DNA from: Candidatus Moraniibacteriota bacterium
Lineage (GTDB): Bacteria > Patescibacteriota > Minisyncoccia > Moranbacterales > DUUL01
DNA: 64,000 nucleotides
Assembly (NCBI GenBank): GCA_041596615.1
Contig: JBFHIG010000002.1
Span: 67,162-131,161 of the forward strand
Direction of reading: 5' to 3'
Shown: positions 1 through 29,394 of the stretch, one piece after another
Layout: each line of letters opens with the position of its first letter
Numbering within the stretch: position 1 is the first letter of the stretch
Program-made: the position numbers and the translations under genes
Notes under the pieces: model-generated
The model's input: the letters and a program-made list of their open reading frames with translations, nothing else
Told to the model about the DNA's origin: nothing
Database searches by the model: none

Positions 1-1801
1 CATCAGAAACTAGACGAGCCCCAACATAAGGATAGTAATTAACGTTACCCGCTATCGTATCAGCCATCTGAGTCCAAGAGTTTCCAGTAATATCATAACG
101 ATAAAAATCATCCTGGGCATTACCTCTTAGCACATAAATAAATCCATCCGCAGCATTATAGGTAGCACTAGCCCCTTGACCAAAAGTTCCTGGTGCTACA
201 GACATTGTACTCCAAGAATTTCCCGCAACACTATAGCGGTAAAAATTACCGGTGGTATTATCTCCTCTTGGAATGTAGATATATCCATTATGAAAAGTAC
301 CCTTCGTGTCATAGTTCATATTCGCTGGTAGATTTGCCATCGTACTCCAAGTATTAGCAGAAACATCGAAACGATAGAAAGCATTACTATTGTCACCTTT
401 AACCCCATACAAATAATTTCCAGCACCAGTAACACCATTCCAAATTAAATTTCCACCCGTATAAAATGTACTTGGTGCATCCGTAGGACCGACCCAATCA
501 CCATTTAAACCAGCTTCGGGATCAAATTTCCAAAAAGTATTTGATCCATTACCTCTGATTACAAAAAATTTATCACTCTCGGAATCATATGCTATTGAAG
601 AATAATTAGTAGCAAGAGGAGTGTCTTCTAAAGATTCCCACGAATCTTCTGCCACATTATAGCGATAAAAAGTGGTAGTATTATAAGAACGCAAAAAATA
701 AACATATCCATCTCGATAAACGCCTTTTTGTTCACCATAAAAAGATAGAGGTGAGCTTGCTAATGCATTCCAAGAATTACTACTGATGTCATATTCCCAA
801 AAAGTTCTTTGATTATAACCACGAAGAACATACATCTTTCCATTTTCACCATAAACAAGGCCTCCTCCTGTATAAATATTTGCAGGAGCTGGAGCAAGGT
901 TATACCAACTACTTTCTTCCATGTCAAATTTCCAAAAATCTGTAGAATTTTGCCCACGTGTTATAAAAAGGTCTGTCCCATCAGATTCAATCCCGGCACC
1001 TGAATATACCGAATCCAAAAGATCCGGAAATTTTTCCCATTCTCCGCTTTCAATATCATAAGAATAAAAATCTTTTGAATAACCTCCAAAAATAAAATAT
1101 AGTTTATCAACTCCATTATATGCAATATCAGCACCATAAAAAGCTGGTTGTGGCATATCAATGGTTTCGATCCACTCGTTATGCTCAATATTATAAACAT
1201 ACAAATCGTTGTCACTATACCCCCTAACTAAATATAGATAGTTTCCTACAACAATAGATGTAGATCCATATGCTATCGTGTCTTCCGTTGGAGCCCACGA
1301 ACGTGCAGTCCACGTTCCATTTGATTTTAGCTGAATCGAATCCGTTTTACTCGTAGTTGAAATATTTGACATCTCTCCGCTATCCCATTCACTTTGCGAA
1401 GAAATTGTTTTTGATTGTGGTGCAGCAGAAATAATTGGGCTGACCAAAAAAATAACTGCTATCAATAAAGATACTATCGTTGAATTGTAAACAAAAATTT
1501 TAATTGCACGAATAATGAAGTTGAGTACATTCCCAACGATATCTTTAATCCTTGAAAAAACCTTCAAAACAGTGAACTGCCAACCCAAAACATTTCTATT
1601 TCTTTTTTTATTTTCGGCTTGTTTCAAAAACTCATCCAGTTTATTAAGTGAAGCCTGTGGATTTTCTTGCACCTTTCTAACTTCATTCCCTCTTATAAAG
1701 TGTCCCAAAAAAGCAAAGAAACAAAATTTATCATTCTGTTTTAAAGAGTTTACATAGACCCCCCTTCTCTTGCTTTTATTATTTATATTTTTTTGTTTCA
1801 T
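1..1801 (-). CDS. Kelch-like beta-propeller repeat protein with N-terminal membrane anchor (partial; C-terminus lies beyond the window start)
   Basis: Own reverse-strand translation from ATG at 1801-1799: MKQKNINNKSKRRGVYVNSLKQ... A hydrophobic anchor follows (IVSLLIAVIFLVSPIISAA). Then at least 9 tandem ~50-aa blades each end in an aromatic-x-(Y/F)D...(S/E)W signature: LYVYNIEHNEWIE, DFYSYDIESGEWEK, DFWKFDMEESSWYN, TFWEYDISSNSWNA, TFYRYNVAEDSWES, AFYRFDVSANTWST, NFYRYSVAGNSWST, DFYRYDITGNSWTQ. There is no stop before position 1, which explains its absence from the ORF track. Confidence 0.7.
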   Translation of the reverse strand, partial: MKQKNINNKSKRRGVYVNSLKQNDKFCFFAFLGHFIRGNEVRKVQENPQASLNKLDEFLKQAENKKRNRNVLGWQFTVLKVFSRIKDIVGNVLNFIIRAIKIFVYNSTIVSLLIAVIFLVSPIISAAPQSKTISSQSEWDSGEMSNISTTSKTDSIQLKSNGTWTARSWAPTEDTIAYGSTSIVVGNYLYLVRGYSDNDLYVYNIEHNEWIETIDMPQPAFYGADIAYNGVDKLYFIFGGYSKDFYSYDIESGEWEKFPDLLDSVYSGAGIESDGTDLFITRGQNSTDFWKFDMEESSWYNLAPAPANIYTGGGLVYGENGKMYVLRGYNQRTFWEYDISSNSWNALASSPLSFYGEQKGVYRDGYVYFLRSYNTTTFYRYNVAEDSWESLEDTPLATNYSSIAYDSESDKFFVIRGNGSNTFWKFDPEAGLNGDWVGPTDAPSTFYTGGNLIWNGVTGAGNYLYGVKGDNSNAFYRFDVSANTWSTMANLPANMNYDTKGTFHNGYIYIPRGDNTTGNFYRYSVAGNSWSTMSVAPGTFGQGASATYNAADGFIYVLRGNAQDDFYRYDITGNSWTQMADTIAGNVNYYPYVGARLVSD

Positions 1802-1948
1802 CCTCAATCAATGAAGCCGATCTAGCTCTAAAAAATAACTTTTTCAACTTTTAAAGTCGGGCTTAACTTGCTTTTATTTTTTGCTCACCCCGATTCTATT
1901 CTAGAAATGAGTCAGTTTTTAAAGTGAATCTCTTTTTGTTTTTTCTTT

Positions 1949-2608
1949 TTAAAATTTCCAAACAGCTTCGTTTCTTGCAAAATCTCTCCTTGATATCTCA
2001 GTTTGTTCAATAGACTCACTTTTTAGATATATCTTTTTCCCTTTTTCGAAATTTCCTTTTTTCTCATCATTTAAAAATACATCAACATTTTCCTCAAAAA
2101 CCAACAATTTAGGATCCTTTTGAAATCCCTTTTCTACAGCAAAAAAAGAAGAGAGAGTTTCTGCTCGATAGTCTTTCACTCCAACACTATACTTCCTAGA
2201 ACTTACAAAATTAACCTTGTTATAAACAAAACCGTTTATAAGAGAAATATTGATTTGATATAGTTTATTTTCAAAAATCAGTTGAGTAACTTCATCCATG
2301 CTCATAACACTACCATCATCAAATTTAATAACAGCCTTTGAATCAGCTAGAGTTCTAATCTCCATACCTGAAATAATTTTATCCCCCACCGAAAGACTTT
2401 TCCAGCCGCCGCCGCCAGAAATCCTCTGCTCGATTACTCCTTCTATAGATTCTATATTCCCTGTATAAATACCTTCCTCGGAAAAAAGTTGTCCTTTTGC
2501 TAATTGCACCACCAAATCATCTCCTTTATCTGGGAATTTAACTAAAAGTCCTGATATAGCAAAAAGAGCAAACATGATAACTGTCAAAACCACGTTGATA
2601 ATATTCAT
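1949..2608 (-). CDS. membrane-anchored FecR-domain-like protein
   Basis: Track ORF of 219 aa. N-terminal TM helix (VVLTVIMFALFAISGLLV). The segment GDKIISGMEIRTLADSKAVIKFDDGSVMSMDEVTQLIF resembles the FecR beta-sandwich pattern. Confidence 0.45.
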   Translation of the reverse strand: MNIINVVLTVIMFALFAISGLLVKFPDKGDDLVVQLAKGQLFSEEGIYTGNIESIEGVIEQRISGGGGWKSLSVGDKIISGMEIRTLADSKAVIKFDDGSVMSMDEVTQLIFENKLYQINISLINGFVYNKVNFVSSRKYSVGVKDYRAETLSSFFAVEKGFQKDPKLLVFEENVDVFLNDEKKGNFEKGKKIYLKSESIEQTEISRRDFARNEAVWKF

Positions 2609-2784
2609 TTCACAGTTTTTTACTGCTTGTATAATTACAAATTAATTATACCAGAAGGTTCTATAAAATGGAATAGGAAAAACTTTGTTTAAAGCATAAG
2701 AGCCCCTCGTGAGATTGTCGTGATTGAATTTTATTTTTTTTTGTTTATCTCAACCTCCTTTTGAAAATAATTTCAGATAATTGT

Positions 2785-2812
2785 TTGACAGAAAAAAATG
2801 TTTATTTATAAT
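2785..2812 (+). promoter_or_regulatory. sigma70-type promoter (TTGACA, 16-nt spacer, TATAAT)
   Basis: TTGACA at 2785-2790 and TATAAT at 2807-2812. It faces the mini-ORF at 2914. Confidence 0.5.
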
Positions 2813-2913
2813 TATTATTGTATAAGTTTGGACATTCTGGGTAAAAACTCTGGGATTCCAGCTTTATAACGAAACGTAGTTGCATTATTAGCCTTCGAAA
2901 AGGAGATTTGCCG

Positions 2914-3066
2914 ATGAAACATGCGAAAAAACTTTTTTCAAACGGAGCAAATGCCGCCAACCTCGCCGGGATGCCGAAAAGGAATATGGTGACCACCGAT
3001 ATTGTCGCCGATCCTGCCGCCAACCAAAATTTTGAGGCCAACCTCTCCGAAAACAGTGCCGCCTGA
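2914..3066 (+). CDS. 50-aa small protein candidate (GC3-rich mini-ORF 1)
   Basis: AGGAG at 2901-2905 lies 8 nt before ATG 2914. Peptide: MKHAKKLFSNGANAANLAGMPKRNMVTTDIVADPAANQNFEANLSENSAA, with TGA at 3064-3066. It is flanked by a consensus promoter and a strong terminator. It is below the 60-aa cutoff of the ORF track. It could instead be a structured RNA. Confidence 0.35.
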   Translation: MKHAKKLFSNGANAANLAGMPKRNMVTTDIVADPAANQNFEANLSENSAA

Positions 3067-3124
3067 CCACAATGCCTGGCAGCTGACGGAGAAAATCTAA
3101 TGATGTGGTCCTAATGACCAGGAA

Positions 3125-3170
3125 ACCGGATATTTAGTCGAAACTAGATATCCGGTCCTTTTTTATTTTT
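3125..3170 (+). terminator. intrinsic terminator
   Basis: ACCGGATAT(T)TAG - tcgaaa - CTA(G)ATATCCGGT, followed by CCTTTTTTATTTTT. Confidence 0.7.
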
Positions 3171-3396
3171 AAATAAAATTCTTAAAATAAGCCAAAAAAT
3201 GCATACTTAAAACTCTACACAGCAAAAGTACTTGACAAAAAATCTTAAAAAAATCTTAAATGTGTATTATTATTGTTAAAGTACTCTAAACAATAGTTAC
3301 AAATTGTATCAGAGGAGCAAGACGCTTTGTCTTACTTCAATCCCAAAAACATAGCAATCTAGCTGTGTGGAAACTTCTTCGAGAAAGGAGAGAACT

Positions 3397-3510
3397 ATGA
3401 CGAACTACCTGTCACTGCAGCTTGAAGAAGAAGAGTGGGTATCTCCCCCGCTGCCTGAGAATGAGATTTTAAATTATATTAATTTGAACTGTCGCCGTTC
3501 GGCGCACTAG
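3397..3510 (+). CDS. 37-aa small protein candidate (GC3-rich mini-ORF 2)
   Basis: GAAAGGAG ends 6 nt before ATG 3397. Peptide: MTNYLSLQLEEEEWVSPPLPENEILNYINLNCRRSAH, with TAG at 3508-3510. Coding status is uncertain because the segment is also heavily self-complementary. Confidence 0.25.
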   Translation: MTNYLSLQLEEEEWVSPPLPENEILNYINLNCRRSAH

Positions 3511-3522
3511 CCTGCCCCGGCT

Positions 3523-3677
3523 GGCCCCATAATTAAATTTGCTGATTAAAGCAAAGGATCATTCTGGGGCCCATGTCTCATTGCTAAAATTATTGCTATT
3601 TTTTTATCAAAAAAATAGCAATAATTTTCAATGGTGAGACTTTAAGCCGATTTCCCTAAAAGGAGGTCGGCTGTTTT
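3523..3677 (+). other. series of three hairpins downstream of mini-ORF 2
   Basis: GGCCCC(3523-3528)...GGGGCC(3566-3571) encloses TTTGCT-gatta-AGCAAA. An extended AT-rich hairpin runs from GTCTCA (3575) to TGAGAC (3640), with a perfect core ATTGCTATTTTTTT-atc-AAAAAAATAGCAAT. AGCCGA(3645)...TCGGCT(3672) plus TTTT has a loop containing AAAAGGAGG. Confidence 0.6.
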
Positions 3678-3756
3678 AATTCTCAATCTCCTAGCAAAAA
3701 AATCTCTTTGTGTCAAAATAGGTTTATAAAAATAATTTTCTATCTAAAAAATTAAT

Positions 3757-4227
3757 ATGTTTTTAAATCTCAAAATTGTTGCTGTTGGAAAAATTAAAAA
3801 TAAAGAAATTGCTGCACTTGCAGGAGAATACCAAAAAAGACTCTCTCCTTTTTGCAAACTACAAATAATCGAACTTCCAGCCGTTCCTTTTCTAAGTGAC
3901 GGTGACAAAGAAAAATCAAAGAAAAAAGAAGGTATCAAAATTCTTGAATATCTAGCCAAAAATTCCACCGAAAACTTTTTTCTGTTGGAGGAATACGGCA
4001 AAGAATTTTCTTCTGTAAATTTTTCTGAAAAACTCGCCTCTATTTCTGGTTGCACGACTTTTATTGTCTCTGGAACATTAGGTTTTAGTAAGGAAATTAA
4101 AAAACTTAATCTACCAAGTTTGTCACTTTCTCAAATGACTTTCCCCCATGAAATGGCAAGATTATTATTGCTTGAACAAATCTATCGAGCAATCAGTATT
4201 ATTAACGGGAAAAAATACCACTATTAA
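3757..4227 (+). CDS. rlmH: 23S rRNA (pseudouridine1915-N3)-methyltransferase RlmH (SPOUT)
   Basis: 156 aa. N-terminal KIVAVGKIK and the C-terminal SPOUT knot motif MTFPHEMARLLLLEQIYRAISIINGKKYH, typical of RlmH. Confidence 0.85.
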   Translation: MFLNLKIVAVGKIKNKEIAALAGEYQKRLSPFCKLQIIELPAVPFLSDGDKEKSKKKEGIKILEYLAKNSTENFFLLEEYGKEFSSVNFSEKLASISGCTTFIVSGTLGFSKEIKKLNLPSLSLSQMTFPHEMARLLLLEQIYRAISIINGKKYHY

Positions 4228-4299
4228 CAATTGCTTAGATTTTTTGAGAATGCTTTTTTATTGTGCTATGATTGAATCAAATCTTATACTAAAGCAAAT

Positions 4300-4890
4300 A
4301 TGCCAAAAAGAAAAATAAAAAAAATAGATTTTTCTCCTACAAAACTTCGTAGATTTTTAATGTATTTTTCAGTAGTTGCTTTATTCCTATTCTTTAGTTT
4401 TTTATATTACGGAAAAGTACAAAGGGAGAAAATTTCATTAATTCAAAGTTCTAATATTGAAAATATTGAAAAAATAGAGCTCGAAAAAAGAATCCACAAA
4501 ATGGTAAAAGGCTATCCAATTGAGGAAATGGTTCCCTACATCATGGAACATGACCAGATTGTTTCGATTTTCCTTGTCAGCATTGCTAAAAAAGAAAGTA
4601 ACTGGGGCATAAGCACTCCCAAATATAAAGGAAAAGATTGTTTCAATTATTGGGGGTACCGAGGCCCCAATCCACTTGGAAGTGGTGGTCATTCCTGCTT
4701 TTCATCACGAGAAGAGGCTGTTGATATTGTTGGAAAAAGAATCAATTCTTTAGTTAAGGAATCGAACTGCAATACGCCTGCTAAAATGATTGTTTGGAAG
4801 TGTGGATCTTCCTGTAAAACACACAACCCTTTTGGCGTCAAAAAGTGGATTAGTGATGTCGATTTATATTTCAAGAAGCTTTCACAATAA
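4300..4890 (+). CDS. membrane-anchored Cys-rich lysozyme-like (GH73-type motif) domain protein, paralog A
   Basis: N-terminal TM helix (FLMYFSVVALFLFFSFLYYG). C-terminal domain: IAKKESNWG...GKDCFNYWGYRG...HSCFSSREEAVDIVGKRI...WKCGSSC...KKWISDV. This domain is shared with the ORFs at 29605 and 30630. The E-S-x-x-G ... N-x-(F/W)-G-x-(K/R) spacing resembles the GH73 glucosaminidase signature. Confidence 0.4.
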   Translation: MPKRKIKKIDFSPTKLRRFLMYFSVVALFLFFSFLYYGKVQREKISLIQSSNIENIEKIELEKRIHKMVKGYPIEEMVPYIMEHDQIVSIFLVSIAKKESNWGISTPKYKGKDCFNYWGYRGPNPLGSGGHSCFSSREEAVDIVGKRINSLVKESNCNTPAKMIVWKCGSSCKTHNPFGVKKWISDVDLYFKKLSQ

Positions 4891-5043
4891 CATCACGGCA
4901 ACCTGGTGCTAATTATAAAATATGCCAATCCAATTAACTTCCAAAAAATAATTACTTCTTTACTTTATTGTTCTATGCTCAACCTTAAAAGCTTTCGAAA
5001 ACCTAGAGAAATCTTTTTAAACTTAACTAAGAATAAGTATTTT

Positions 5044-6042
5044 ATGCCTATCCTAAAAAGATTTCTCGTTTACTCATTTATTGCAGTACTGCTTTTTTGG
5101 GCGAACGAAGAAATAAAAGTTAAAGTAGCAAGTTATACCAAAAATATTCTCGGGGTTCCTAGCGGTGGGATTGTCTTTGTTAATCAACTTGCTAGTGCTG
5201 ATTTTAAAAATGGCTCTATCGAGCACCCTTTTAGTGAAATAAAAGAAGCTCTCGAGTTTATAAAAAAAAACAGCTCTTTTAAGATTATACATGTTTCAAC
5301 TGGGGTATATAGCGAAAAAGTTTCTTTACCAGAAAATGTCATTTTGACAGGAGAAACAGCTTCTGACGGAAAGTTATTAACTTCAATCCAATCTCCTGAA
5401 AAAGGCTCTGATGATGTTATTGTTGCTAATAATAACGTTACGCTTTTTAGGCTTTTAATAAAGGATGGGAGATATAATGTTCACATCCCCGAAAATAAAG
5501 ACAATGTTTTGATTTCAAACTGTACTATCACAAATGCTTCGAAATATGGCATTTTTAATGAAAAAAATTCCTCAAATCTTCCTCGGCTTCGCATCATAAA
5601 CACCTCTGTTGTTGAAAATGGCAAACAAGGCGCCTATCTCAAAAAAAGTTCTGTAGAAATTAGGAATTCTTTTTTTAATAGAAACGGCGAGGAGGGTATT
5701 GATTTACACGCTGGGATGACTACTGTTATAGATAACGTCGAGGTAATGGAAAATAAAGAAGGTGGTGTTGAAACTGAGATTGGAGATATAAACTTAATAA
5801 TTAAAAACTCCAAATTTATAGGGAACGGCTCAAGCGGAATAAACTTGCAAACATTTGAAGAAAATTCCTTCATAGAAATTAGAAATAATATTATTACCAA
5901 CAATCTTCATTTTGGAATTAGATGTGCCTTGCATGCGCCAATAAAGTCTCCTTACTTTACAAAAATGGTGAAAATCTCAGATGACAATGTTTTTGATCAA
6001 AACGGAAAAGAGGATATAGACCCTACATGCAAAGCTAGATAA
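5044..6042 (+). CDS. secreted or anchored right-handed parallel beta-helix repeat protein (DUF1565/pectate-lyase-like)
   Basis: The track ORF starts at GTG 4906. The ATG at 5044 gives MPILKRFLVYSFIAVLLFW, a signal or anchor. GSIEHPFSEIKEALEFI plus repeated N-x-x-G-I-x-L / NN turns (NASKYGIFNE, ENGKQGAYLK, RNGEEGIDLH, GNGSSGINLQ, NNLHFGIRC). Confidence 0.6.
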   Translation: MPILKRFLVYSFIAVLLFWANEEIKVKVASYTKNILGVPSGGIVFVNQLASADFKNGSIEHPFSEIKEALEFIKKNSSFKIIHVSTGVYSEKVSLPENVILTGETASDGKLLTSIQSPEKGSDDVIVANNNVTLFRLLIKDGRYNVHIPENKDNVLISNCTITNASKYGIFNEKNSSNLPRLRIINTSVVENGKQGAYLKKSSVEIRNSFFNRNGEEGIDLHAGMTTVIDNVEVMENKEGGVETEIGDINLIIKNSKFIGNGSSGINLQTFEENSFIEIRNNIITNNLHFGIRCALHAPIKSPYFTKMVKISDDNVFDQNGKEDIDPTCKAR

Positions 6043-6132
6043 AAAACTAATCTTTTGTCTAATTTGCGATAGCCCAAAAAAATAAAACCCTGATATTGTC
6101 AGGATTTTATTTTTTGCATATAGAAAGTTTTT

Positions 6133-8589
6133 TTATTCGAAATCATCTTTGGTTAGCGAAATTTCTCCACCCCTCTCAACATCTTTCGCAATAATTTTTG
6201 TAGCAATCTTGTCTTCGATTTTATCAGAAATATACCTGTTAATCGAACGAGCACCAAAAACAGGATCGTAGCCTTTTTCAATCACGCAATCCACAACTTC
6301 TTCGTTAAATTTAACAGTAATGTTTTTTTCCCTACTAACTCTGGTAGCAAATTTATTTAACATCAACGAAATCACTTGCTTCATCTGATTGTTTTCCAGG
6401 GCTCTAAAAAATACAACTGAATCAAAACGATTTAAAAATTCAACTCTAAACAGTCCTTCTTTCACAATATAATCAACCAGTCTCTTCCTTAGTTCCTCCG
6501 CCTCAACTCCTTGCTCAACCATTTCCTTAATCAAGGAAGCTCCGGCATTTGAAGTGGCAATAATAATAGTCCCTCGGAAGCTAATTTTCTCCCCAAACCC
6601 ATCCGTAATATACCCCTCATCCAAAACTTGCAAAAATAAATCCAAAATATCACTATGGGCCTTTTCTATCTCATCTAGCAAAATAAGCGAAAAAGGAGAA
6701 TCTTTTGTTTTGGAAGTCAAAATCCCAATTTCTCCAGTATTTTGAGAGCCTATTAATCTTCCAATTGAGTCTTGAGTTTTATATTCACTCATATCAATCC
6801 TAATCATGCGCTCTTCATTACCGAAATGAACTTCTGCAAGAGCTTTGGCTGTTTCAGTTTTCCCAACTCCGGTTGGTCCAAGAAATAAAAAACTTCCAAT
6901 TGGTTTTTTAATATCTCTAATCCCAGCCCGCATTTTTCTGATTGAATTTGCAATTTGAATTACAGCACCATCTTGCCCAATAACTCTTGTGTGTAAAAGA
7001 TCTTCCATTTTCATCAATTTATCCTTTTCGTCCTGTTCAATTTGACCTTGTTTTGTGCCGGTTTTGATACTCATCACACGAAATACATCCTCGGTGCCAA
7101 TGAGCTTTCCTTGATCGGCATAGTTTTTCTCCCAATACAAAAGTACACTATTTGCAAAACCAATTGCCCTGCCAGGCAAAGGCATAATTTTTCCTAACTG
7201 TGAAGATCGGCGCACAATTTCTCTTAATGCTTGAAAAGTGAAAACAACAATATCATGCTCTACTTCACTAAATTTTTGCAACAAAATTTCAATCGCTTCT
7301 TCGTCACTTGGCTCTTTTATTTCGACAACGTCAAAATTCTTGACGATGCTCTCCTGTTTCTCAATCAAGGAATAATAATTATTGCGTGTTGTTGTGGCAA
7401 TCACTTGAAAATTTGGCAACATCAGATATCGATCCATAACAGCCGCTATATTAACAGATGATTTGTGCCCTGGATCAAGATATTTTCCAATTTCATCTAT
7501 AGCTAAAATAATATTTCCTGCGAAAGCGGCTTCTTGAAATAATGAATGCAATGCATGTTCTGGGTCGCCTCCTTCATTTACAACTGCAGAGATTGTACTC
7601 CCAAGATCAACCAGCATGATTCTTTTCTCGTCAAGCTGTTCTCCGGCCTTTCCTTGTAAAACCTGCTTAGCAATGTGATGCATAATAGCTTTTTTTCCAA
7701 CCCCAGATTCGCCCATTAACAAAACATTGTTTTGCTCTCCCTTCATTAGAATCAATTTTGCCATTTCAATTTCTTCATCATAGCCAATTGGTAACACAAG
7801 ACGATATTCTGTTGGATCGTAAGCCGATAACTCAACTGCATGACGATCGATTGTTACCGTATATCCATATTCCCACCCTTTTCCGATAGGAACTGATTTG
7901 CGAAGATTTTCTCTTAACCAAAACTTTCTTGAATTTTCCTTGGCTGTCTGCAAGCTCATTTCCCATTTTAAAATAATTCCGAACTCATCCAAAGTCATAT
8001 CATACGTTTTCAAAAAATCTGCTAATTTCTTTTTGTCTGCCAATATTTCAGATGTTAATTCACCCGTTTTTGCTCCGATTCTTTGTATAACTCTCTTAAA
8101 CCATGTGAATTTTAGCAATTTCTCTATTGGCATATTACTATAAGGAACTTTTTTGCTCTCTAGATATGCCAACATGGTTCCAATTAAAAATAATCCCACC
8201 ACAAGCAAACCAGCCATATACTTTTGCTCTCCAAGCGCCACACCGATAATTGAAATTGTAAGCAAAATAGGAGCTAAAATCCAAACTATCAAAAAAAATA
8301 AACCAACAATAAAAGTTATTGTTGTCATTACGACACCAAAAGATGCAACGAAAAAACGAACCATCGCACCAAAAAATCTCAAAATTATGTTCACTACCAC
8401 TCTCTGCGCTTCCAAGATGGGGTGTAGCCCAATCCAATTCTTAGGACTCAAATCCTTTCTCCAAGGAGAAAAAAGGGTCGCAAAAAGATGTCTCACGCTA
8501 AAAATTGTCAGAAAATGATAAAGGAAATTATTCCAGTTGGAAAAATATTTTTTTATCCCACCAGTCCAGTACCAGATAAGGAAGCCCAT
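6133..8589 (-). CDS. membrane-anchored Hsp100/Clp-family double AAA+ ATPase (ClpB-like, no N-domain and no obvious M-domain)
   Basis: 818 aa. About 150 aa of N-terminal TM helices. D1 has LLMGESGVGKKAIMHHIAKQV and ILAIDEIGKY. D2 has the canonical FLFLGPTGVGKTETAKALAE, LILLDEIEKAH and GARSINRYI. Confidence 0.75.
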   Translation of the reverse strand: MGFLIWYWTGGIKKYFSNWNNFLYHFLTIFSVRHLFATLFSPWRKDLSPKNWIGLHPILEAQRVVVNIILRFFGAMVRFFVASFGVVMTTITFIVGLFFLIVWILAPILLTISIIGVALGEQKYMAGLLVVGLFLIGTMLAYLESKKVPYSNMPIEKLLKFTWFKRVIQRIGAKTGELTSEILADKKKLADFLKTYDMTLDEFGIILKWEMSLQTAKENSRKFWLRENLRKSVPIGKGWEYGYTVTIDRHAVELSAYDPTEYRLVLPIGYDEEIEMAKLILMKGEQNNVLLMGESGVGKKAIMHHIAKQVLQGKAGEQLDEKRIMLVDLGSTISAVVNEGGDPEHALHSLFQEAAFAGNIILAIDEIGKYLDPGHKSSVNIAAVMDRYLMLPNFQVIATTTRNNYYSLIEKQESIVKNFDVVEIKEPSDEEAIEILLQKFSEVEHDIVVFTFQALREIVRRSSQLGKIMPLPGRAIGFANSVLLYWEKNYADQGKLIGTEDVFRVMSIKTGTKQGQIEQDEKDKLMKMEDLLHTRVIGQDGAVIQIANSIRKMRAGIRDIKKPIGSFLFLGPTGVGKTETAKALAEVHFGNEERMIRIDMSEYKTQDSIGRLIGSQNTGEIGILTSKTKDSPFSLILLDEIEKAHSDILDLFLQVLDEGYITDGFGEKISFRGTIIIATSNAGASLIKEMVEQGVEAEELRKRLVDYIVKEGLFRVEFLNRFDSVVFFRALENNQMKQVISLMLNKFATRVSREKNITVKFNEEVVDCVIEKGYDPVFGARSINRYISDKIEDKIATKIIAKDVERGGEISLTKDDFE

Positions 8590-8744
8590 TTTTGCTTTTA
8601 TTTAAATTTTATTTTCTTTTATATTCTATATTAAATTATAACATCAAAAAAAACTTATAACAATTTTATTTGCTAAAATGTAAAAAATTTTTAACTCCCG
8701 TCAATTTTCATGCTATAATGACTTCATGTTAATTACTTTTAGAA

Positions 8745-9917
8745 TTGTCCATTCTGATGCACACATACCATCATCATATACATACGTATCTTCCTGACTG
8801 CATGAGCTCGCTGAAAAAAGATGTAAATGGCATCTACTTGATTCATTCCATCAGGGGTTTTATTTTTTCTCTTTTTGGGATATTCATACCAATCTACCTG
8901 TTAACTTTAGATTTTTCAATTGTATTAGTTCTCTCCTATTTTATTATAAGACAAATTTCGATTCTTCTAACAAATTTTTGTGTTGCTTCAATCGCTAATA
9001 AATTGGGACTAAAGCATACCATGCTGATTAGCCTTCCCTTGTCATTAATTTATCTCTTACTACTTCCTCTGTTAAGTTCTTTCCCTAATTTATATTTATT
9101 TTTTGGTTTAGCATTTATCAGTGGCGCAGAAGCTGCCTTATATTGGGTGCCTATGCACTCTTTATTTGCAAGATCAACAAAAAAAGAAGAGAAAAGTTCT
9201 CAGGTTGGAAGACTTCTCTCCTTTCAGCACATAGCCGGAATGCTTGCACCTCTTATTGGTGGAACAATTACGCTTTTTTATGGTATTGAAGTTCTATTTG
9301 GCATAGCAATTATTCTTTTAATGATTCCTCTTGGTATTCTTTTGTACACACCAGAAATAAAACCCCACATTAATTTCAACTTTCGCCATGGACTTGGACT
9401 TTTAAAAAAATATAAGAGACATTATTATCTGACTTGTTCTGAGATTATTGGCAGCACCACCGAATCAATTATTTGGCCACTTTTTGTTTTTTTAGTTTTG
9501 AAAAATGAATTTTCTATTGGACTCATCGGGACGCTCCTTGGTGTAGGAACGGTTTTTTTCTCTTTATTTATGGGTCACAGAACCAACAAAACAAACCGCA
9601 AAAAAATAGTGAAGTTTGCTGCTTTAATGCTAGCAATTGTTTGGACTAGTAAGTTTTTTGCTGAGTCCTCGATTATGATATATGTTCTTTCAATTATTTC
9701 TGGTTTTTTTGTTATTATGTTTTCTGTTCCCAATACAGCAGAAACCTACGAATTAGCAAATAAGGAGAAACATATCGATGAATTTATCATCTTCCGTGAG
9801 GTTCCCATAACTATTGGAAAAATTTTACTGCTTCTTATTTCGATGTTTTTTCTGTCTAAATTAAACCTTGCTTTTATCCTAACTGGTCTTAATTTTTTAT
9901 TAGTGTTTTTTATTTAA
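8745..9917 (+). CDS. MFS-like polytopic membrane transporter
   Basis: About 12 predicted TM segments in two halves. The start is uncertain; ATG 8802 (MSSLKKD) is an alternative. No substrate can be assigned. Confidence 0.5.
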   Translation: MSILMHTYHHHIHTYLPDCMSSLKKDVNGIYLIHSIRGFIFSLFGIFIPIYLLTLDFSIVLVLSYFIIRQISILLTNFCVASIANKLGLKHTMLISLPLSLIYLLLLPLLSSFPNLYLFFGLAFISGAEAALYWVPMHSLFARSTKKEEKSSQVGRLLSFQHIAGMLAPLIGGTITLFYGIEVLFGIAIILLMIPLGILLYTPEIKPHINFNFRHGLGLLKKYKRHYYLTCSEIIGSTTESIIWPLFVFLVLKNEFSIGLIGTLLGVGTVFFSLFMGHRTNKTNRKKIVKFAALMLAIVWTSKFFAESSIMIYVLSIISGFFVIMFSVPNTAETYELANKEKHIDEFIIFREVPITIGKILLLLISMFFLSKLNLAFILTGLNFLLVFFI

Positions 9918-9996
9918 ACTTTTTATTTATCTCCGGGAATTATTCATGCTAGAATATGGGAGAACAAACATTGGAATTTTTATATACGCGTGATTC

Positions 9997-11556
9997 ATGA
10001 AAAAAAGAACCAAAATAAAAATCATCTGGAAAAGTTTCTTGCTTAGAATCTTCTTTTTGATTTGCATTTTAATCTTTTTTTATGGCATTTTTGTTGGATA
10101 TAAACTATACAGGATGGAAAATAAAATCCTTGAAATTACTCAAACGAATGAAGGCGCTCAAGTGGAAACAAAAGGGTTTATCGAAACAGCAAAAACACTT
10201 ATAACAAATGACAAACTACCTTTACGTGATAACGGAGAAGGAAGAATTAACATTCTATTACTAGGCATGAGTGGGGAGGGCTACAAATCTCAATATCTAA
10301 CAGACACCATCATGCTGGTTTCAATTGATACCACAACATATAAATCCGGTATGCTTTCTATTCCTCGTGATTTATATGTAGAAATTCCAGAAACAAAAGG
10401 ACTTCACACAAAAATTAATGCTATTTATACTTTTTCAATTAAGAACAAATCCTTGTCTAGTAGTGAGTCTATGAATAATATAAAAACAGTTATTCAAGAT
10501 ATCACTGGACAGAAAGTCCATTATTATCTCACTTTAGATTTTGCTGGTTTCAAAAGTGTTATCAATGAGTTAGGAGGCATTGATGTAGAAGTAGAAAATG
10601 ATATATATGATGACCGCTATCCTGGACCTAACTATTCGTATGAAACATTCGAAATAAAAAAGGGATTTCAACATCTTGACGCAGAAACTGCTCTAAAATA
10701 TGCTCGGGTTCGTCACATAAGTGGTGGTGATTTTGGAAGAGCCGCAAGACAACAACAGGTCATTGCTGCTGCCAAAAAAAAGGCTTTCTCTTTGGGGACT
10801 GTTGCGAATCCACCAAAAATAGTCTCTCTTATTGATACGCTAGGAGATCACATAAAAACAGATATTCAACTGGCGGAAATACCTGCCTTCATTGATTTAG
10901 CAAATAAAATTAACATACACCAAACCACTTCGAAAGTCCTGGATGCTTGGAGCTCTGACTCCCTTCTTGGCTCAACACACGTTGAAATGGGTGGAGTTAT
11001 GGCCTATGTACTCATTCCTAAAACAAAAAATTACAAACAAATCTATGAATTATCGGAAAACATTTTTGATCTCGAAAAAATCAAACGAAAAAGGGAGGCA
11101 ATCGAAAAAGAAAATGCTAAAATTGCCTTCGTGCTTGAGAATAAAAATAACTATAGTAAAATTAGAGTTGCTCTAACAAACTTAGGATACACACCTGTAA
11201 TTAACCCTCCGAATAATAATATTTCTTGCTATAAAGAAAATAGAATTCTCAGTCTTTCTGAAAATCAGAAAATATTTACTTTAGATGATTTAGCTGTTAA
11301 ATTAAACTCGGAAGTAAAATATTTGGAATCTAATGACCCCCTTAGTGAGAGACAAGAAGGTGAGTCTGATAAAAAAGTAATTGCGGAGGAAAAAGAAGAA
11401 ATCGAACGCTCTCCTTTTGATATCGTTGTTTGCTTGTCTGATGATATTTTGGCTTATTTTGAGATGCAAAATGAAAAAAAAGAAGATACCTCTGGGGAGA
11501 TAAGTGCTCAAAGCATACTCGATAATGATGGAAATGTCTTATTTAAAAAAGAATAG
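9997..11556 (+). CDS. LytR-CpsA-Psr (LCP) family cell-envelope glycopolymer ligase with C-terminal extension
   Basis: N-terminal TM helix. INILLLGMSG...TDTIMLVSID...LSIPRDLYV...YYLTLDFAGFKSVINELGGIDVEV...ALKYARVRH...GDFGRAARQQQVI. Confidence 0.85.
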   Translation: MKKRTKIKIIWKSFLLRIFFLICILIFFYGIFVGYKLYRMENKILEITQTNEGAQVETKGFIETAKTLITNDKLPLRDNGEGRINILLLGMSGEGYKSQYLTDTIMLVSIDTTTYKSGMLSIPRDLYVEIPETKGLHTKINAIYTFSIKNKSLSSSESMNNIKTVIQDITGQKVHYYLTLDFAGFKSVINELGGIDVEVENDIYDDRYPGPNYSYETFEIKKGFQHLDAETALKYARVRHISGGDFGRAARQQQVIAAAKKKAFSLGTVANPPKIVSLIDTLGDHIKTDIQLAEIPAFIDLANKINIHQTTSKVLDAWSSDSLLGSTHVEMGGVMAYVLIPKTKNYKQIYELSENIFDLEKIKRKREAIEKENAKIAFVLENKNNYSKIRVALTNLGYTPVINPPNNNISCYKENRILSLSENQKIFTLDDLAVKLNSEVKYLESNDPLSERQEGESDKKVIAEEKEEIERSPFDIVVCLSDDILAYFEMQNEKKEDTSGEISAQSILDNDGNVLFKKE

Positions 11557-11575
11557 CTTAAATTAAACACAAAAA

Positions 11576-12169
11576 ATGGATACTTTTCTAATTGTAGGTC
11601 TTGGTAACCCAGGAGAAAAATACCAAAAGACACGACATAACATTGGATTTAGGGTTTTGGACTCATTGCTTAACGCTTTTGGACCCTCAACTGTCTCCCC
11701 TTTCACTTTAAACAAAAAAATTGGTGGGGAATTTGCAACAATCATTGAAAAGAAAAAGGTCCACCTCCTTAAACCCATATCTTTTATGAATCTTTCAGGA
11801 ATTCCAGTGACTGCTACTATGAATTATTTCAATGTAAAAATTGATAAAATTGTTATTGTTCATGACGACATTGATCTTCCTTTGGGACAAATACGTTTAT
11901 CAAAAAACTCTGGTGCTGGTGGACACAATGGTATTAAATCAATCATTGAACATCTTGGGTCAAAGGATTTTATCAGACTAAGAATAGGAATTTCAAACGA
12001 ATTATCAAAAACTTCTATTGCGACTGAAAAATTTGTTCTTGGAAAATTTTCCGACACAGAAAACAATGAACTAAAAAAAATTATTACTCTTTCCTGTGAA
12101 TGTCTTATGTATTATCTTGAAAATGGACTTGAAAAAACAATGAACGAATTTAATCAAAAAATAAACTAG
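11576..12169 (+). CDS. pth: peptidyl-tRNA hydrolase
   Basis: LIVGLGNPGEKYQKTRHNIGFRVLD, plus HDDIDLPLG and GHNGIKSI. Confidence 0.9.
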   Translation: MDTFLIVGLGNPGEKYQKTRHNIGFRVLDSLLNAFGPSTVSPFTLNKKIGGEFATIIEKKKVHLLKPISFMNLSGIPVTATMNYFNVKIDKIVIVHDDIDLPLGQIRLSKNSGAGGHNGIKSIIEHLGSKDFIRLRIGISNELSKTSIATEKFVLGKFSDTENNELKKIITLSCECLMYYLENGLEKTMNEFNQKIN

Positions 12170-12189
12170 TCTTTTCATATAACAAAAAA

Positions 12190-12262
12190 CACTACACCGC
12201 TAATGAGTTATTGGAAAGGGATAGGAGGGAGTTACCTTGCCAAGATCATAAGCGGTGCAGTG
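12190..12262. other. 73-nt extended hairpin whose apical loop is AGGAGGGAG (plus strand) / CUCCCUCCU (minus strand)
   Basis: CACTACACCGCTAATGA (12190-12206) pairs with TCATAAGCGGTGCAGTG (12246-12262), 15 of 17 bp. An inner helix is TTGGAAAGG/CCTTGCCAA. The apical loop is GATAGGAGGGAGTTA. A T-run follows only on the minus strand. Confidence 0.55.
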
Positions 12263-12300
12263 CCAACATTTAAACTTAAAATATTATAATAGCTTATTAT

Positions 12301-12329
12301 AAAAAATTGCTTCTGTCAAGCAATTTTTT
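12301..12329. terminator. bidirectional intrinsic terminator between convergent genes
   Basis: AAAAAATTGCTT-ctgtc-AAGCAATTTTTT, a perfect stem with A and T runs on both sides. Confidence 0.75.
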
Positions 12330-12355
12330 AAGCTATCTTTAAAGATTTTTAATAA

Positions 12356-12781
12356 CTACTCGAAAAGATTCTTTAAGGGCTTCATTAAAAGCAAACAAAA
12401 AACTAGGTATATACCCGTCTCTAAAAGTGAAACTTTATATAAAACAGTTCCCAATGTAAGCACAAATAAAAGCAATAGAATTGCCATTATTATCTTATAC
12501 TTATATTCACTGATGTCTTGTTCTTTTTTTTCATCTTTTTTTTCGTCAAAAAACATAACGAAGGCCATCATTGCAACAATCGCAAATAATAGAAAATTAA
12601 AATTAAACACATCCATTACAATTCCTGGTAAAATAGATTCTAAAGCAAAAAAACTCAAGTAAACAAAAGCCACTAAAGCTAAACTTTTTTTGACAAAATC
12701 TAACAACACTTTATTCTCAAAAATTTTAAACTTATTTTTTAACATAGTATTACTTAAATATTTCTTCTCCATATTTTTCAA
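12356..12781 (-). CDS. small polytopic membrane protein (hypothetical)
   Basis: Track ORF of 141 aa with about 4 TM segments and a KKDEKKEQD loop. The start may be an internal Met at 12772 or 12745. Confidence 0.5.
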   Translation of the reverse strand: MKNMEKKYLSNTMLKNKFKIFENKVLLDFVKKSLALVAFVYLSFFALESILPGIVMDVFNFNFLLFAIVAMMAFVMFFDEKKDEKKEQDISEYKYKIIMAILLLLFVLTLGTVLYKVSLLETGIYLVFCLLLMKPLKNLFE

Positions 12782-13691
12782 ATATTCTTGCCTTTTGAAA
12801 AGCTAATGTTATCTTTGGATTTTTCCAACTAGAAGTGTTGAAAGTATTCAAAACAATACTTGCTCTTGTTAGATTCTTTACGCCTTCACCAAAAGAAAAT
12901 ATAAATGTATTCCCAGATATATCACCTTTTGTATACTCTTCAGCAAAAGAACATTTGAAAAAGCCAACTGAATTATCTTGCCTACATCCTCCGATTATTT
13001 TTGGCTTCTGATTATCCATTGAAATAGCAAAATAATCATTCCACACATCTTTTATGACTTCTTCATTTTTAATTGGTAGCAACTTTTCATCCCATACAAG
13101 AAAAAAAGAATTGTCTCTTGTTTTCAGTATTATACCATCGGGATGAGGGGTTCCTGCAATAATTTTTTCACCCTCCTCAAAAGAACTCTCCATGTCATCA
13201 TCAAAAGTCTCTACTCTATCCCAATCGAACCCCAAGTCTTCAAAAAATTGAGGTCCTAGGAAAGGATTCCACTTTCCCCTTGAATAGACATACACAGCGT
13301 TTTTTGTAGAGACAAGCTTTCCATTTGGGATATCTAGATTATCAGAAAAAATATACTTTCGTAAAACATCTGAATTTTCAATCTCATCACCTAAGGGATA
13401 AAGTTGCACTAAAAAACCTTTTTCAACTTCAACAGACTCTTTCTTTGAAAAAATATTCTCGGGAAGTATCTCAACTGTTGCAGAATAAAAACTATAGCCA
13501 AACTCTGGGTCCACCGTTAAATACCCCTTTTTTTCAGCTGAAAAATCTATGGTCGTAACGGCTTTATTCCTTTTTTCGGAATCAAACTCATTCTTGGGAT
13601 AAAGAATTTTTAAGCCAACAAACAAAATCAGGAATGTTCCCAATAGCCCTACAACCAATGTATTAATTTTTTTTATTTTAAATTCTTGCAT
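12750..13691 (-). CDS. membrane-anchored hypothetical exported protein
   Basis: The track ORF extends to 13751. ATG 13691 (MQEFKIKKINTLVVGLLGTFLILFVGL) gives a signal-anchor and only a short overlap with the upstream gene. Confidence 0.55.
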   Translation of the reverse strand: MQEFKIKKINTLVVGLLGTFLILFVGLKILYPKNEFDSEKRNKAVTTIDFSAEKKGYLTVDPEFGYSFYSATVEILPENIFSKKESVEVEKGFLVQLYPLGDEIENSDVLRKYIFSDNLDIPNGKLVSTKNAVYVYSRGKWNPFLGPQFFEDLGFDWDRVETFDDDMESSFEEGEKIIAGTPHPDGIILKTRDNSFFLVWDEKLLPIKNEEVIKDVWNDYFAISMDNQKPKIIGGCRQDNSVGFFKCSFAEEYTKGDISGNTFIFSFGEGVKNLTRASIVLNTFNTSSWKNPKITLAFQKARIFEKYGEEIFK

Positions 13692-14463
13692 TTTTCCGCT
13701 CCTTTCTTTTAATTTTAGGTGAAAAAATCCCACGATTCTCTTGATATTCATTCCACAACATCAACAAGCATATTCCCAATATCGAAGCTGTAATGGCACT
13801 ATTCATGCCCCTAGGACCTCCCAACAAGAAATTAAATATTGCGTGAACAATTATCGGCAAGCAAATTGTTAGTATAAAAAAATAAAACTTTTTAACACCC
13901 TTTGACAGTTTTGCCTTTGCAAGGAATAACCCAGCTATTCCAGAATAAATTACATGAGCAGAGGTTGAAAGTATAAGCCTAAGCGCTATTACACTGCCAA
14001 AATCAACTGTCTCTTTTGTCTGGGAAATAATGGAAAAATAAACCCCATTCTCAGTCACAGCAAAAGCCAACCCAACAATTAGACCAAAAATCAAACCTTC
14101 ATTTGCATTTTTGATTTTTCTCTTACTTATAACTATCACAATTCCGATTAATTTTGACAGCTCTTCGATTGTTGCGATTAAACCAGCTGATAAGAAAGCA
14201 GTTAACTCAAAAGGCGTCTCGTTAAATAACCAAAACTTTTGCATCCACAACACAATTTCATTCCCACCTCCTGTTTCTGATATAAAAATTTCTAAAATAC
14301 TAGCTGGAATAGCAGTCAAGACTCCCCAAAAAAAAACTTCCGCTAAAAAATTAGAACCTCCTTTTCCGAAATGATTTTTTTTAATAATAAACCAAAGCCA
14401 CCAAGTAATTGGCAGGATTCCAATCATAGCGGCAAAAAGAACATTGTGATATGACACTGTCAT
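13678..14463 (-). CDS. PrsW-like intramembrane protease family protein
   Basis: Polytopic. IEELSKLIG (EExxK), FAVTENGVYF and SAHVIYSGIAG match the arrangement of PrsW conserved motifs. Confidence 0.55.
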   Translation of the reverse strand: MTVSYHNVLFAAMIGILPITWWLWFIIKKNHFGKGGSNFLAEVFFWGVLTAIPASILEIFISETGGGNEIVLWMQKFWLFNETPFELTAFLSAGLIATIEELSKLIGIVIVISKRKIKNANEGLIFGLIVGLAFAVTENGVYFSIISQTKETVDFGSVIALRLILSTSAHVIYSGIAGLFLAKAKLSKGVKKFYFFILTICLPIIVHAIFNFLLGGPRGMNSAITASILGICLLMLWNEYQENRGIFSPKIKRKERKNARI

Positions 14464-14472
14464 TTATTGCTT

Positions 14473-15480
14473 TTATTCTGCTTCTTTAAGTTTCTTTTTG
14501 ATTTGTTCATAAACCTCCTTCGCGGCTTTTTTATCTTCCCTTAAGAAATTTTTGGCAGCTTCTCTTCCTTGTCCAATTTTTTGTTCACCCATTTGATACC
14601 AAGACCCTGCCTTCTTTAAAACTCCATATTTAACACCAGTGTCCACCAAATCTCCTTCCCTGGAAATGCCCTCATTATACATAATATCAAACTCAGCAAC
14701 CTGAAAAGGAGGAGCAACCTTATTCTTAACTATTTTAGCCTTAACTCTGTTCCCAATAATAACGTCTCCTTGTTTAATTTGAGCAGCCCTACGTACTTCG
14801 ATTCTAACCGAGGCGTAAAATTTCAAAGCATTTCCGCCAGTAGTGGTTTCCGGGTTTCCAAACACCACTCCTATTTTCATTCTAATCTGATTGATAAAAA
14901 TTACCAAAACATTTGACTTAGCAACAATTCCAGTCAATTTTCTAAGAGCTTGTGACATTAATCTCGCTTGAAGGCCCATGTGAGAATCACCCATCTCGCC
15001 TTCAATTTCAGCTCTTGGAACAAGTGCCGCAACTGAGTCAACGACTATTACATCTACTGCATTAGAACGAACAAGTGTTTCAACAATCTCCAGCGCTTGC
15101 TCTCCTGCGTCTGGTTGTGAAATTAACAATTCGTCAATGTTAACACCAATTTTTTTAGCATAACTAGGGTCTAGTGCATGCTCAGCATCAACAAAAGCTG
15201 CCACTCCTCCTTCTTTTTGAGCACTTGCAATAATGTGAAGGGTTAATGTTGTTTTTCCGGAAGATTCTGGACCATAAATTTCGATAATTCTTCCTCTTGG
15301 AACACCTCCAATTCCCAGGGCAATATCAAGAGATGGTGAACCAGTTGAAATCGAAGCAACATCAACTTTCTTGACCTCACCCAATTTCATAATGGAACCT
15401 TCACCGAATTTTTCCTTGATTTCGTTCATGACATCACCAATGATTTTCCCCCCATCTTTCTTCTTTTCTGCTTTTGCCAT
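14473..15480 (-). CDS. recA: recombinase RecA
   Basis: [17 protein letters not shown] (Walker A), [12 protein letters not shown], and the [32 protein letters not shown] loops. Confidence 0.97.
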
Positions 15481-15532
15481 TTTTGTTTATTTACTTTATT
15501 ATATTGCGCTATTTAATCTAAAACTTTTTACT

Positions 15533-16600
15533 TCAAGTCTTTTCGATGCTATCCACAGTAGTTTCTTCGCTTTTTTGATCAACTTGTTCCAGTTGACCTG
15601 TTTGATTTCCCGGCGTAAAAACAATATCCCTTACAGTTCCTTTAGTTTCTCCCAAAGCTCCCAGATCTTGGCCATTTAATTTAACCAGAACCTGATCTGC
15701 TTTTCCGGCTGTCACTGAAATACTCTCCCTTCCTTCAAAGAGTTGTACTGCACCTGGCAACATTGTGCCATTCTGGATGTTTTTACCATCAACTGTGACC
15801 AAAACCCACGTCGAAAAGTCTTTAATCTTAATTTCTAACTTTACCACGTCATCTTTCTTTTCATCCTGAACTCCCATCACCTCACCAACTGAATTCTCCT
15901 CTGCTATTATAGTCTCATAATTAGCTGAAACATTAATTTTTTTTGTATCTTGATTCGAAAAACGGTTAACGGCGCTAACCTCTATCTCATTAACGCCATT
16001 TTGTAGACTAACCACCTCTTTGAACTCCCCCTCATCATTAACGAAAACTGGCTGACCATTGATTTTTATCTTGCCGTCTTTGTCTGTAATCCCAATAACT
16101 TCAACTGAATTTCCCTCTAAAGAGAAATTATCAGTTGGTTGCAACACTACAAGCCTAGGAGCTTTTGAAAATTCACCAACTTCTCTGTAAAAATATATTC
16201 CTCCAGACAAGACAAGCAATATGAAAAATAAACTTGCTAAAATTTTAGGAGTGAAGACAACTGTTGGCAATTCAAATCTTTTATTCTTTTTTACATCGAC
16301 TTTTAGTCCCGCTTGACTTTTTCTCATGCTTCTTTGAATGCCTCTTTCTTTTTCATATAATTTCATCACATCGGTTGGCTCAATCCCTAGATATTCAGAG
16401 TAGCTGTTAAGAAAACCTTTAACATAAACATCCGGTGGCAATTTATCAAAACGCCCCTCTTCCAACATCTCTAGATAAAACTTTCTGATCTTTGTATTTT
16501 TAGCTATTTCACTCAAAGAAACATTTGCTTTTTCCCTAACTTGTTTTAGTTTTTCCCCTAGAGTATGTGATTGTACCTTTTTCTTTTTAAATTCCACCAT
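15533..16600 (-). CDS. RodZ-like HTH / transmembrane / DUF4115-type protein
   Basis: N-terminal HTH: LGEKLKQVREKANVSLSEIAKNTKIRKFYLEMLEEGRFDKLPPDVYVKGFLNSYSEYLG. One TM helix and a C-terminal beta-rich domain. Confidence 0.7.
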   Translation of the reverse strand: MVEFKKKKVQSHTLGEKLKQVREKANVSLSEIAKNTKIRKFYLEMLEEGRFDKLPPDVYVKGFLNSYSEYLGIEPTDVMKLYEKERGIQRSMRKSQAGLKVDVKKNKRFELPTVVFTPKILASLFFILLVLSGGIYFYREVGEFSKAPRLVVLQPTDNFSLEGNSVEVIGITDKDGKIKINGQPVFVNDEGEFKEVVSLQNGVNEIEVSAVNRFSNQDTKKINVSANYETIIAEENSVGEVMGVQDEKKDDVVKLEIKIKDFSTWVLVTVDGKNIQNGTMLPGAVQLFEGRESISVTAGKADQVLVKLNGQDLGALGETKGTVRDIVFTPGNQTGQLEQVDQKSEETTVDSIEKT

Positions 16601-16812
16601 AAGCTCACTATTTATTTGTTTTCAGATATCACAAAAGGCGAACAAAATCATACCAATTAAATAGGCTTGAATTGCTATTTCATCTGTTTTCTTACTTTTA
16701 GAATATATCATTTGATATATTTTGTAAACTTGACATTCTCAGCTTTTTTCCTCTTCCAAAAAGCAAAAAAAGTGTTTATTGAATTTTAAAAAACTTCTTC
16801 AAGATATCAATC

Positions 16813-18042
<1,230 letters not shown>

Positions 18043-29386: not shown

Positions 29387-29394
29387 TTTATTCG

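Follow-up and report, generated by a model that had tools for sequence, protein, structure and literature searches.

Dual-function or sibling small RNAs (sRNAs) are exemplified by SgrS/SgrT, RNAIII/hld, OmrA/B, and PrrF1/2, and in the candidate phyla radiation (CPR), whose bacteria have tiny genomes with many genes of no assigned function, small proteins and sRNAs are, to our knowledge, essentially unstudied. Two other kinds of elements lend themselves to comparison with the locus considered here, namely the phage morons (Cumby, Davidson & Maxwell 2012; PMC3594210) and the small open reading frame (sORF) candidates found by the GC-rich intergenic region (GC-IGR) pipeline in long regions of this kind within AT-rich genomes (PMC11109978). 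That locus is an island at 2785-3680 of a 64-kb stretch of DNA (the window, to whose positions all coordinates refer unless another genome is named) from the CPR bacterium Candidatus Moraniibacteriota bacterium. It consists of two tandem GC-rich units, each made up of a promoter, a leader, a Shine-Dalgarno (SD) sequence, an ATG, a short open reading frame (ORF), and an intrinsic terminator. The reading that we favor, with about even confidence, is that each of the two is an autonomous, strongly expressed gene for a small protein and that the chromosomal slot which they share is accessory and evolves fast.

The island lies in a gap of 1,148 nt between a FecR-domain gene and rlmH. An initial annotation of the stretch, made from the sequence alone, had noted that this gap holds no credible long ORF, which proved correct (there is none of at least 100 aa), and all the sequence features that it had listed for the two units were found in their places. 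Unit 1, on the plus strand like unit 2, opens with a promoter matching the consensus at 12 of 12 positions (TTGACA-16-TATAAT, 2785-2812), the sole match of this quality at 1-20000 of the window. The leader of about 95 nt (2819-2913, with the transcript start predicted from the promoter) carries an AGGAG (2901-2905) located 8 nt upstream of the ATG at 2914, and the ORF comprises 50 codons plus TGA (MKHAKKLFSNGANAANLAGMPKRNMVTTDIVADPAANQNFEANLSENSAA, 2914-3066). The sequence TGCCGCCAACC is present twice in the unit, with a third copy at 82%, and the stretch 2983-3009 (AATATGGTGACCACCGATATTGTCGCC), a core common to this unit and to unit 1 of a second lineage (L032; see below), contains the motifs GACCACC and GTCGCCG. 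The 3' end of the unit (3106-3165) is formed by a small hairpin (3106-3120), a 14-bp terminator stem (3125-3156), and a T-run. The promoter region of unit 2 (3232-3273) contains TTGACA (3232-3237), an 11-nt tandem duplication (3237-3260; 2.2 copies with 100% matches), and TTAAAA-17-TATTAT (3245-3273), and a 36-nt stretch of it is 75% identical to the promoter region of unit 1. There follow a leader with a predicted start (3280-3396), in which GAAAGGAG (3383-3390) stands 6 nt before the ATG at 3397, an ORF of 37 codons plus TAG (MTNYLSLQLEEEEWVSPPLPENEILNYINLNCRRSAH, 3397-3510), and a 3' region (3523-3677) with a first hairpin (3523-3571), a second hairpin (3575-3640), and a terminator with a T-run (terminator 3645-3672). 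The terminators of the two units are the two best terminator matches at 1-20000 of the window.

Both small ORFs coincide with GC-rich patches (2891-3160 with a peak of 0.57, and 3341-3530 with a peak of 0.52), the GC content being 0.48 to 0.56 at 2901-3100 and 0.43 to 0.47 at 3351-3600, versus 0.35 for the whole window. The preference for GC-ending codons that had set the two ORFs apart from their neighbors in the initial annotation was borne out, as the GC content at third codon positions (GC3) is 0.58 in ORF 1 and 0.54 in ORF 2, against 0.307 ± 0.039, with a maximum of 0.434, in 43 window genes. Unlike most host genes, both mini-ORFs have a strong SD: an SD-like motif precedes only 4 of the 43 long window ORFs, most starts following A-rich, SD-less leaders. 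We compared this arrangement with dinucleotide-preserving shuffles, scoring an SD followed at 3 to 9 nt by an ATG whose ORF is no shorter than the one observed. It turned up in 0.6% of the shuffles for unit 1 and in 0.75% for unit 2, and the range for each of four units, with the two of L032 included, was 0.35 to 0.75%. The ORFs are thus unlikely to be chance products, and an SD-ATG-ORF arrangement (37 to 60 codons) so seldom matched by the shuffles, in a genome where SD motifs are this rare, makes the earlier suggestion of purely non-coding units an unlikely one. As a separate observation, the SD-bearing genes of the window tend to have a higher GC3, examples being a phosphoribosyltransferase-domain gene (26529-27332, GC3 of 0.43) and paralogues at 31893-33238. 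At 31893-34047, on the minus strand, there are three tandem paralogous genes (180, 192, and 188 aa) with no Pfam match and with lipoprotein-like N termini, e.g., ...LFGCANP and ...LGGCANS.

We then compared the locus with its counterparts in two other lineages, in both of which the flanking genes are syntenic with those of the window. L032 is the more distant of the two, a marine lineage whose RlmH is 74% identical, and its sequence is found in identical form in metagenome-assembled genomes at NCBI and in the Saanich Inlet and Line P metagenomes; the identical unit 1 sequence was present on 24 contigs in the 30 index blocks read. Its FecR/rlmH gap of 918 nt also contains two tandem units, with terminal hairpins, strong SDs, promoters of the forms TTGACA-18-TAAAAT and TTGACA-18-TATAAT (12/12 and 11/12 matches among the two units), leaders of about 100 to 115 nt, and ATG ORFs of 60 and 39 codons, at a GC content of 0.43 to 0.51 in a locus of 37% GC. 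In the NCBI annotation, the product of unit 1 of this lineage is a hypothetical protein (MBT3355884.1 and others). Every unit of both lineages has an SD-ATG ORF (37 to 60 codons) at the equivalent place, although no full-length alignment of the ORFs is possible and the two islands are unalignable outside the core of 27 to 28 nt. The core of unit 1 (AAT[A/G]TGGTGACCACC...ATTGTC) gave a local alignment score of 29 versus a shuffle maximum of 28 and is in the same frame in both ORFs, and the unit 2 peptide of the window is unrelated to that of L032. Within each genome the promoters of the two units resemble one another, which suggests tandem paralogy. The flanking genes of the window and L032 are near saturation at synonymous sites, and all the contigs sampled from each lineage are 100% identical, so that they offer no polymorphism.

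The closest genome, L001 (JBFHFF010000001), with an RlmH 86% identical to that of the window, is collinear on both sides of the island but does not have it. Positions 1-2694 and 3688-4890 of the window align to L001, and between them 214 unalignable nt take the place of about 990 nt. Within this replacement, L001 5785-5820 preserves the unit 1 promoter in decayed form (an alignment of 38 columns scoring 35, against a shuffle mean of 24 and a shuffle maximum of 36). The adjoining stretch L001 5821-5931, in which AGGAG-TA-ATG opens no more than four codons before a T-run and which has CAATCCCAAA in common with the leader of unit 2 of the window, may be the collapsed remnant of a unit. The FecR/rlmH slot would probably be ancestral, accessory, and of fast turnover: present in the common ancestor, kept in L032 with almost complete turnover of its sequence, and largely deleted in L001. 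Given that L001 is the nearer relative of the window and L032 the more distant one, an ancestral slot with a deletion in L001 is the simplest history; an independent acquisition of units at the same spot in the window and L032 lineages is conceivable. Among more distant CPR, the rlmH loci L033 to L041 have other upstream genes and no comparable units. A beta-helix/NosD-like gene (4906-6042) is likewise present in the window and in L032 and cleanly absent from L001, which has 58 nt instead, so that L001 lacks both this gene and the island of mini-genes.

We infer from the signals described above that both units are transcribed and translated. A sigma-70-type promoter would give a transcript of about 350 nt from unit 1 (approximately 2819-3165) or about 400 nt from unit 2 (approximately 3280-3677), the promoter being a perfect consensus in the former and weakened in the latter. 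The unusually strong SD, rare in this genome, would recruit ribosomes for the translation of the short ORF, and the strong intrinsic terminator would stop each transcript ahead of rlmH, which has a conserved upstream segment of its own. That segment (3688-3756, plus strand) marks the right boundary of the island, is 85% identical to L001 5932-6004, and probably serves as a weak promoter of rlmH itself. If expressed as predicted, the units are probably abundant products of the cell, since they have the strongest promoter and terminators of the 20 kb scanned.

The peptides predicted from 2914-3066 and 3397-3510, which include LFSNGANAANLAGMPK and NMVTTDIVADPAANQNFEANLSENSAA, and the two peptides of L032 are hydrophilic or only mildly hydrophobic, with a maximum 15-residue Kyte-Doolittle mean of 0.39, -0.07, 1.14, and 0.17 for the four; the peptide of unit 2 is acidic, with a net charge of -4. 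Because none of the four has a signal peptide or a membrane-spanning window, they would act in the cytoplasm. Characterized soluble small proteins mostly bind a larger partner, and such binding would be the likeliest mode of action for the two peptides of the window. A single-sequence AlphaFold model of ORF 1 has two short helices (residues 12 to 18 and 34 to 49) at a mean pLDDT of 74, which is weak evidence. One further candidate, P0002 (69 aa; from L064, an ENA contig of 520 nt), was considered as a variant of the unit 2 ORF of L032 with read-through of its TAG and was rejected: the contig is identical to L032, with the TAG present, and P0002 is therefore an artefact of gene calling or of the genetic code applied.

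Several observations weigh against this reading of the units as small-protein genes. To begin with, the peptides are orphans. ORF 1 and ORF 2 had no relative in a word-indexed search of 5.8 billion clustered proteins, and no real homologue of ORF 1 was found among 1.84 billion representative proteins, where the single match of a HMMER scan, a 609-aa repeat protein aligned in six stretches, was judged spurious. A profile of the four peptides retrieved nothing beyond the L032 peptides themselves, and Pfam, NCBIfam, PHROGs, and PADLOC gave no match, nor did Pfam for ORFs in the alternative frames. Further, the promoter of unit 2, for which the initial annotation had pointed to TTGACA, does contain this hexamer, but the 11-nt duplication has put it out of register, the nearest -10-like hexamer being 30 nt away, and the candidate that is in register, TTAAAA-17-TATTAT, is weak (9/12). 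Nor is a GC3 of 0.50 to 0.58 accounted for if the ORFs are ordinary genes of this genome. We considered a codon bias linked to expression and rejected it, since the GC3 of the genes for EF-Ts and S2 is low (0.266 and 0.301, respectively). The question thus raised is what keeps the SD strong and the codons GC-rich in a handful of tiny genes of an SD-poor, low-GC3 genome.

The remaining points of this kind concern the level at which the units are conserved. The ORFs of unit 1 from the two divergent lineages scored 27 when their peptides were compared in frame, less than the 43 and 37 obtained out of frame at the same offset, which places their similarity at the nucleotide level. The motifs GACCACC and GTCGCCG are each present in three of the four units, whereas 0.05 shared GC-rich 7-mers would be expected (p of about 0.003 in a post hoc test), and GTCGCCG is found nowhere else in the 64-kb window or in the L032 locus. 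GACCACC is moreover read in different frames, as GGA CCA CCA in unit 2 of L032 and as GTG ACC ACC in the unit 1 ORFs, which indicates a constraint on RNA or DNA. In the core, six identical residues are encoded by identical, mostly rare codons (P of about 0.006 to 0.02 at the rate of the flanking genes, a value biased by the fact that the core was found through a nucleotide alignment). The recurring 7-mers leave an RNA-level role of the units open, and with it the dual-function RNA that the initial annotation had named among its options.

These findings speak for the strongest of the competing explanations, a possible one that we hold to be clearly less probable than that of small-protein genes: the units could be a pair of sibling sRNAs, non-coding or dual-function, that pair with G-rich targets through unpaired C-rich motifs (GACCACC, GUCGCCG, and the repeated GCCAACC), the ORFs being secondary or serving as a second function. 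In AT-rich genomes, functional RNA is classically recognized by GC-rich patches, and tandem units with like promoters in each genome recall sibling sRNAs. The SD-ATG-ORF arrangement, however, greatly exceeds chance expectation in each of the four units, no target was identified, complementarity between the RNAs of unit 1 and unit 2 was no better than with shuffled sequence, and the test in which the motifs stood out was devised after they had been seen.

The folding of the units argues in the same direction. The initial annotation had called the island highly structured, which applies to the 3' hairpins, the fold z score being -7.8 for unit 2 as a whole and -2.4 for unit 1 as a whole, but not to the ORF bodies, with z scores of -0.13 and -1.02 in the window and -1.0 to +0.5 for the four ORF bodies including those of L032. 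The leader of unit 1 has a 5' hairpin, yet taken whole it folds no better than shuffles (z = -0.35), and the leader of unit 2 has a z score of -1.85. The excess of RNA structure is thus confined to the 3' hairpins. Selection on RNA structure, which had been put forward as a source of the GC-rich codons, was rejected as their cause, because the ORF bodies fold like shuffled sequence. Rfam 15 was searched at the gathering threshold for the 64 kb and with E up to 10 for 2600-3780 of the window and for the L032 island. At the gathering threshold only tRNAs were found in the window and the island had no match, while at E up to 10 the two islands had no family in common and gave only matches of the hairpin type, with scores well short of gathering. 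ARAGORN found four tRNAs in the window, none of them in the island, and no tmRNA, so that the absence of a recognizable housekeeping RNA, noted by eye in the initial annotation, stands. The 66-nt hairpin at 3575-3640, between the ORF and the terminator of unit 2, has perfect 20-bp AT-rich arms (3586-3605 and 3609-3628) and no counterpart in L032, and it is the source of the sole microRNA-type Rfam matches, which are spurious. The most GC-rich patch of the window (peak of 0.62) lies elsewhere, at 29150-29345 on the minus strand, just downstream of a tRNA-Glu gene (29394-29466). It contains a perfect palindrome of about 30 nt (GGACACGTCGCTCGCGAGCGACGTGTC), has a multi-branch fold with a z score of -4.3 and no Rfam match with E up to 1, and could be an unrecognized structured RNA.

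A bolder version of the RNA reading combines it with that of small-protein genes. The units would be members of an undescribed Moraniibacteriota family of highly expressed, chromosomal, moron-like cassettes, with dual-function transcripts that join a fast-evolving orphan peptide to conserved, unpaired C-rich motifs (GACCACC and GUCGCCG) acting on G-rich targets. We regard this as unlikely; if true, it would mean a lineage-specific regulatory or conflict module in a genome that hardly uses SD sites.

Slightly less likely still, in our estimate, are inert or decaying remnants of horizontally acquired DNA in an intergenic hot spot that tolerates them, maybe acquired separately in the two lineages. 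A GC content, an SD usage, and consensus signals atypical for the host fit such an origin, as do the dispensability of the island, lost in L001, the promoter of unit 2 broken by a duplication, and the failure of the lineages to align beyond the core. Remnants would hardly, however, have kept promoter, SD, ORF, and terminator intact in all four units of two lineages near synonymous saturation, nor a high GC content that has not decayed to the host level. A donor is not in evidence either: scans of viral contigs, of metagenome contigs (with both peptides), and of phages and plasmids by BLAST, with the DNA or the peptides, retrieved nothing, and in neither protein collections nor metagenome contigs did either peptide have a real homologue. 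The foreign origin proposed in the initial annotation holds in part. The composition looks foreign and the anatomy is cassette-like, but the comparison of lineages fits poorly with a single recent transfer, since the slot is filled in a near-saturated lineage and L001 retains a decayed unit 1 promoter.

Leader peptides are known upstream of amino acid operons and of erm rRNA methyltransferase genes, and unit 2 might by analogy be a translated leader (attenuator) governing read-through into rlmH and the genes downstream. The arrangement is suggestive: in the window as in L032, the strand of rlmH carries a short ORF, then hairpins and a terminator, 45 to 85 nt ahead of the rlmH start. We nevertheless think this quite improbable. 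The predicted fold consists of three independent stable hairpins in which no anti-terminator pairing was apparent (no systematic search was run), the rlmH upstream segment is conserved in L001, which has no units, the two unit 2 peptides are mutually unrelated, and unit 1, having its own terminator, cannot be a leader. Least credible of all is a type I toxin-antitoxin system, a small toxic peptide whose synthesis from a long-leader mRNA is kept in check by an antisense RNA, which the ORFs of at most 60 codons, the leaders of about 100 nt, the tandem paralogous units, the narrow distribution, and the rapid divergence recall but which is opposed by the hydrophilic peptides (maximum 15-aa hydropathy of -0.07 to 1.14, with no membrane helix, which argues also against most membrane small proteins), by opposite-strand promoter sites of only 9/12, none of them convincing for an antisense RNA, and by an SD whose pairing probability is about the transcript average and which is thus not specifically sequestered. 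Precursors of ribosomally synthesized and post-translationally modified peptides (RiPPs) are also unlikely, because no modification, protease, or export genes are found among the neighbors; the four peptides had no match to any RiPP precursor family of NCBIfam or Pfam.

The small-protein genes that we favor are set among housekeeping genes. Upstream lies the FecR-domain gene, which encodes a membrane-anchored protein (1949-2608, minus strand; Pfam FecR, 3.3e-8), and downstream rlmH (3757-4227, plus strand; SPOUT_MTase, 2.9e-42), and the other neighbors comprise one protein without a Pfam match, beta-helix/NosD-like and ClpB-like proteins, and the genes for Pth and glycogen phosphorylase. The island is not an assembly artefact, as the window sequence at 1533-3861 recurs with 100% identity in an independent assembly (Logan contig L065, SRR29257459). 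No further copies of it are present within the 64-kb window.

How does the island compare with known systems? It shares some superficial traits with tmRNA, in that the predicted unit 1 transcript is of about 350 nt and that ORF 1 is Ala/Asn-rich and ends in Ala-Ala-stop, its C terminus ...AANQNFEANLSENSAA recalling the SsrA tag. Unit 1, however, has no tRNA-like domain, has its own SD and ATG, and in its L032 counterpart ends in ...MICG, and the sole match to a tmRNA family (mt-tmRNA in a cmscan of 2600-3780 with E up to 10; 22.3 bits versus a gathering threshold of 65, E of 0.53) falls on the unit 2 hairpin (3570-3635, minus strand), not in unit 1. Dual-function and sibling sRNAs are resembled in that the units are short, autonomous, tandem, paralogous in appearance, and provided with a small ORF, and in that short motifs are kept while the rest has diverged, but no target or seed pairing was identified, no chaperone is known to go with the units, and the ORF fills most of the GC-rich part. 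With phage morons the units have in common a promoter and a terminator of their own, a deviating composition (GC content of 0.48 to 0.56 versus 0.35, and GC3 of 0.54 to 0.58 versus 0.31), and a position between genes that are adjacent in the relative L001. They differ from morons in lying outside any prophage, among housekeeping neighbors and with no phage, viral, or PHROG match, and in occupying a slot that is seemingly ancestral and lost in one lineage rather than newly inserted. The sORF candidates of the GC-IGR type likewise are short ORFs with a start and a stop in a long GC-rich intergenic region and are not placed so as to regulate a main ORF; the units differ from them in being tandem, in having each a consensus promoter and a terminator, and in that a coding-type pattern of conservation is not demonstrable from only two lineages. 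On present evidence, the island is a lineage-specific accessory feature and, rather than a new class of system, a further case of a long GC-rich stretch between genes that holds orphan small-ORF genes.

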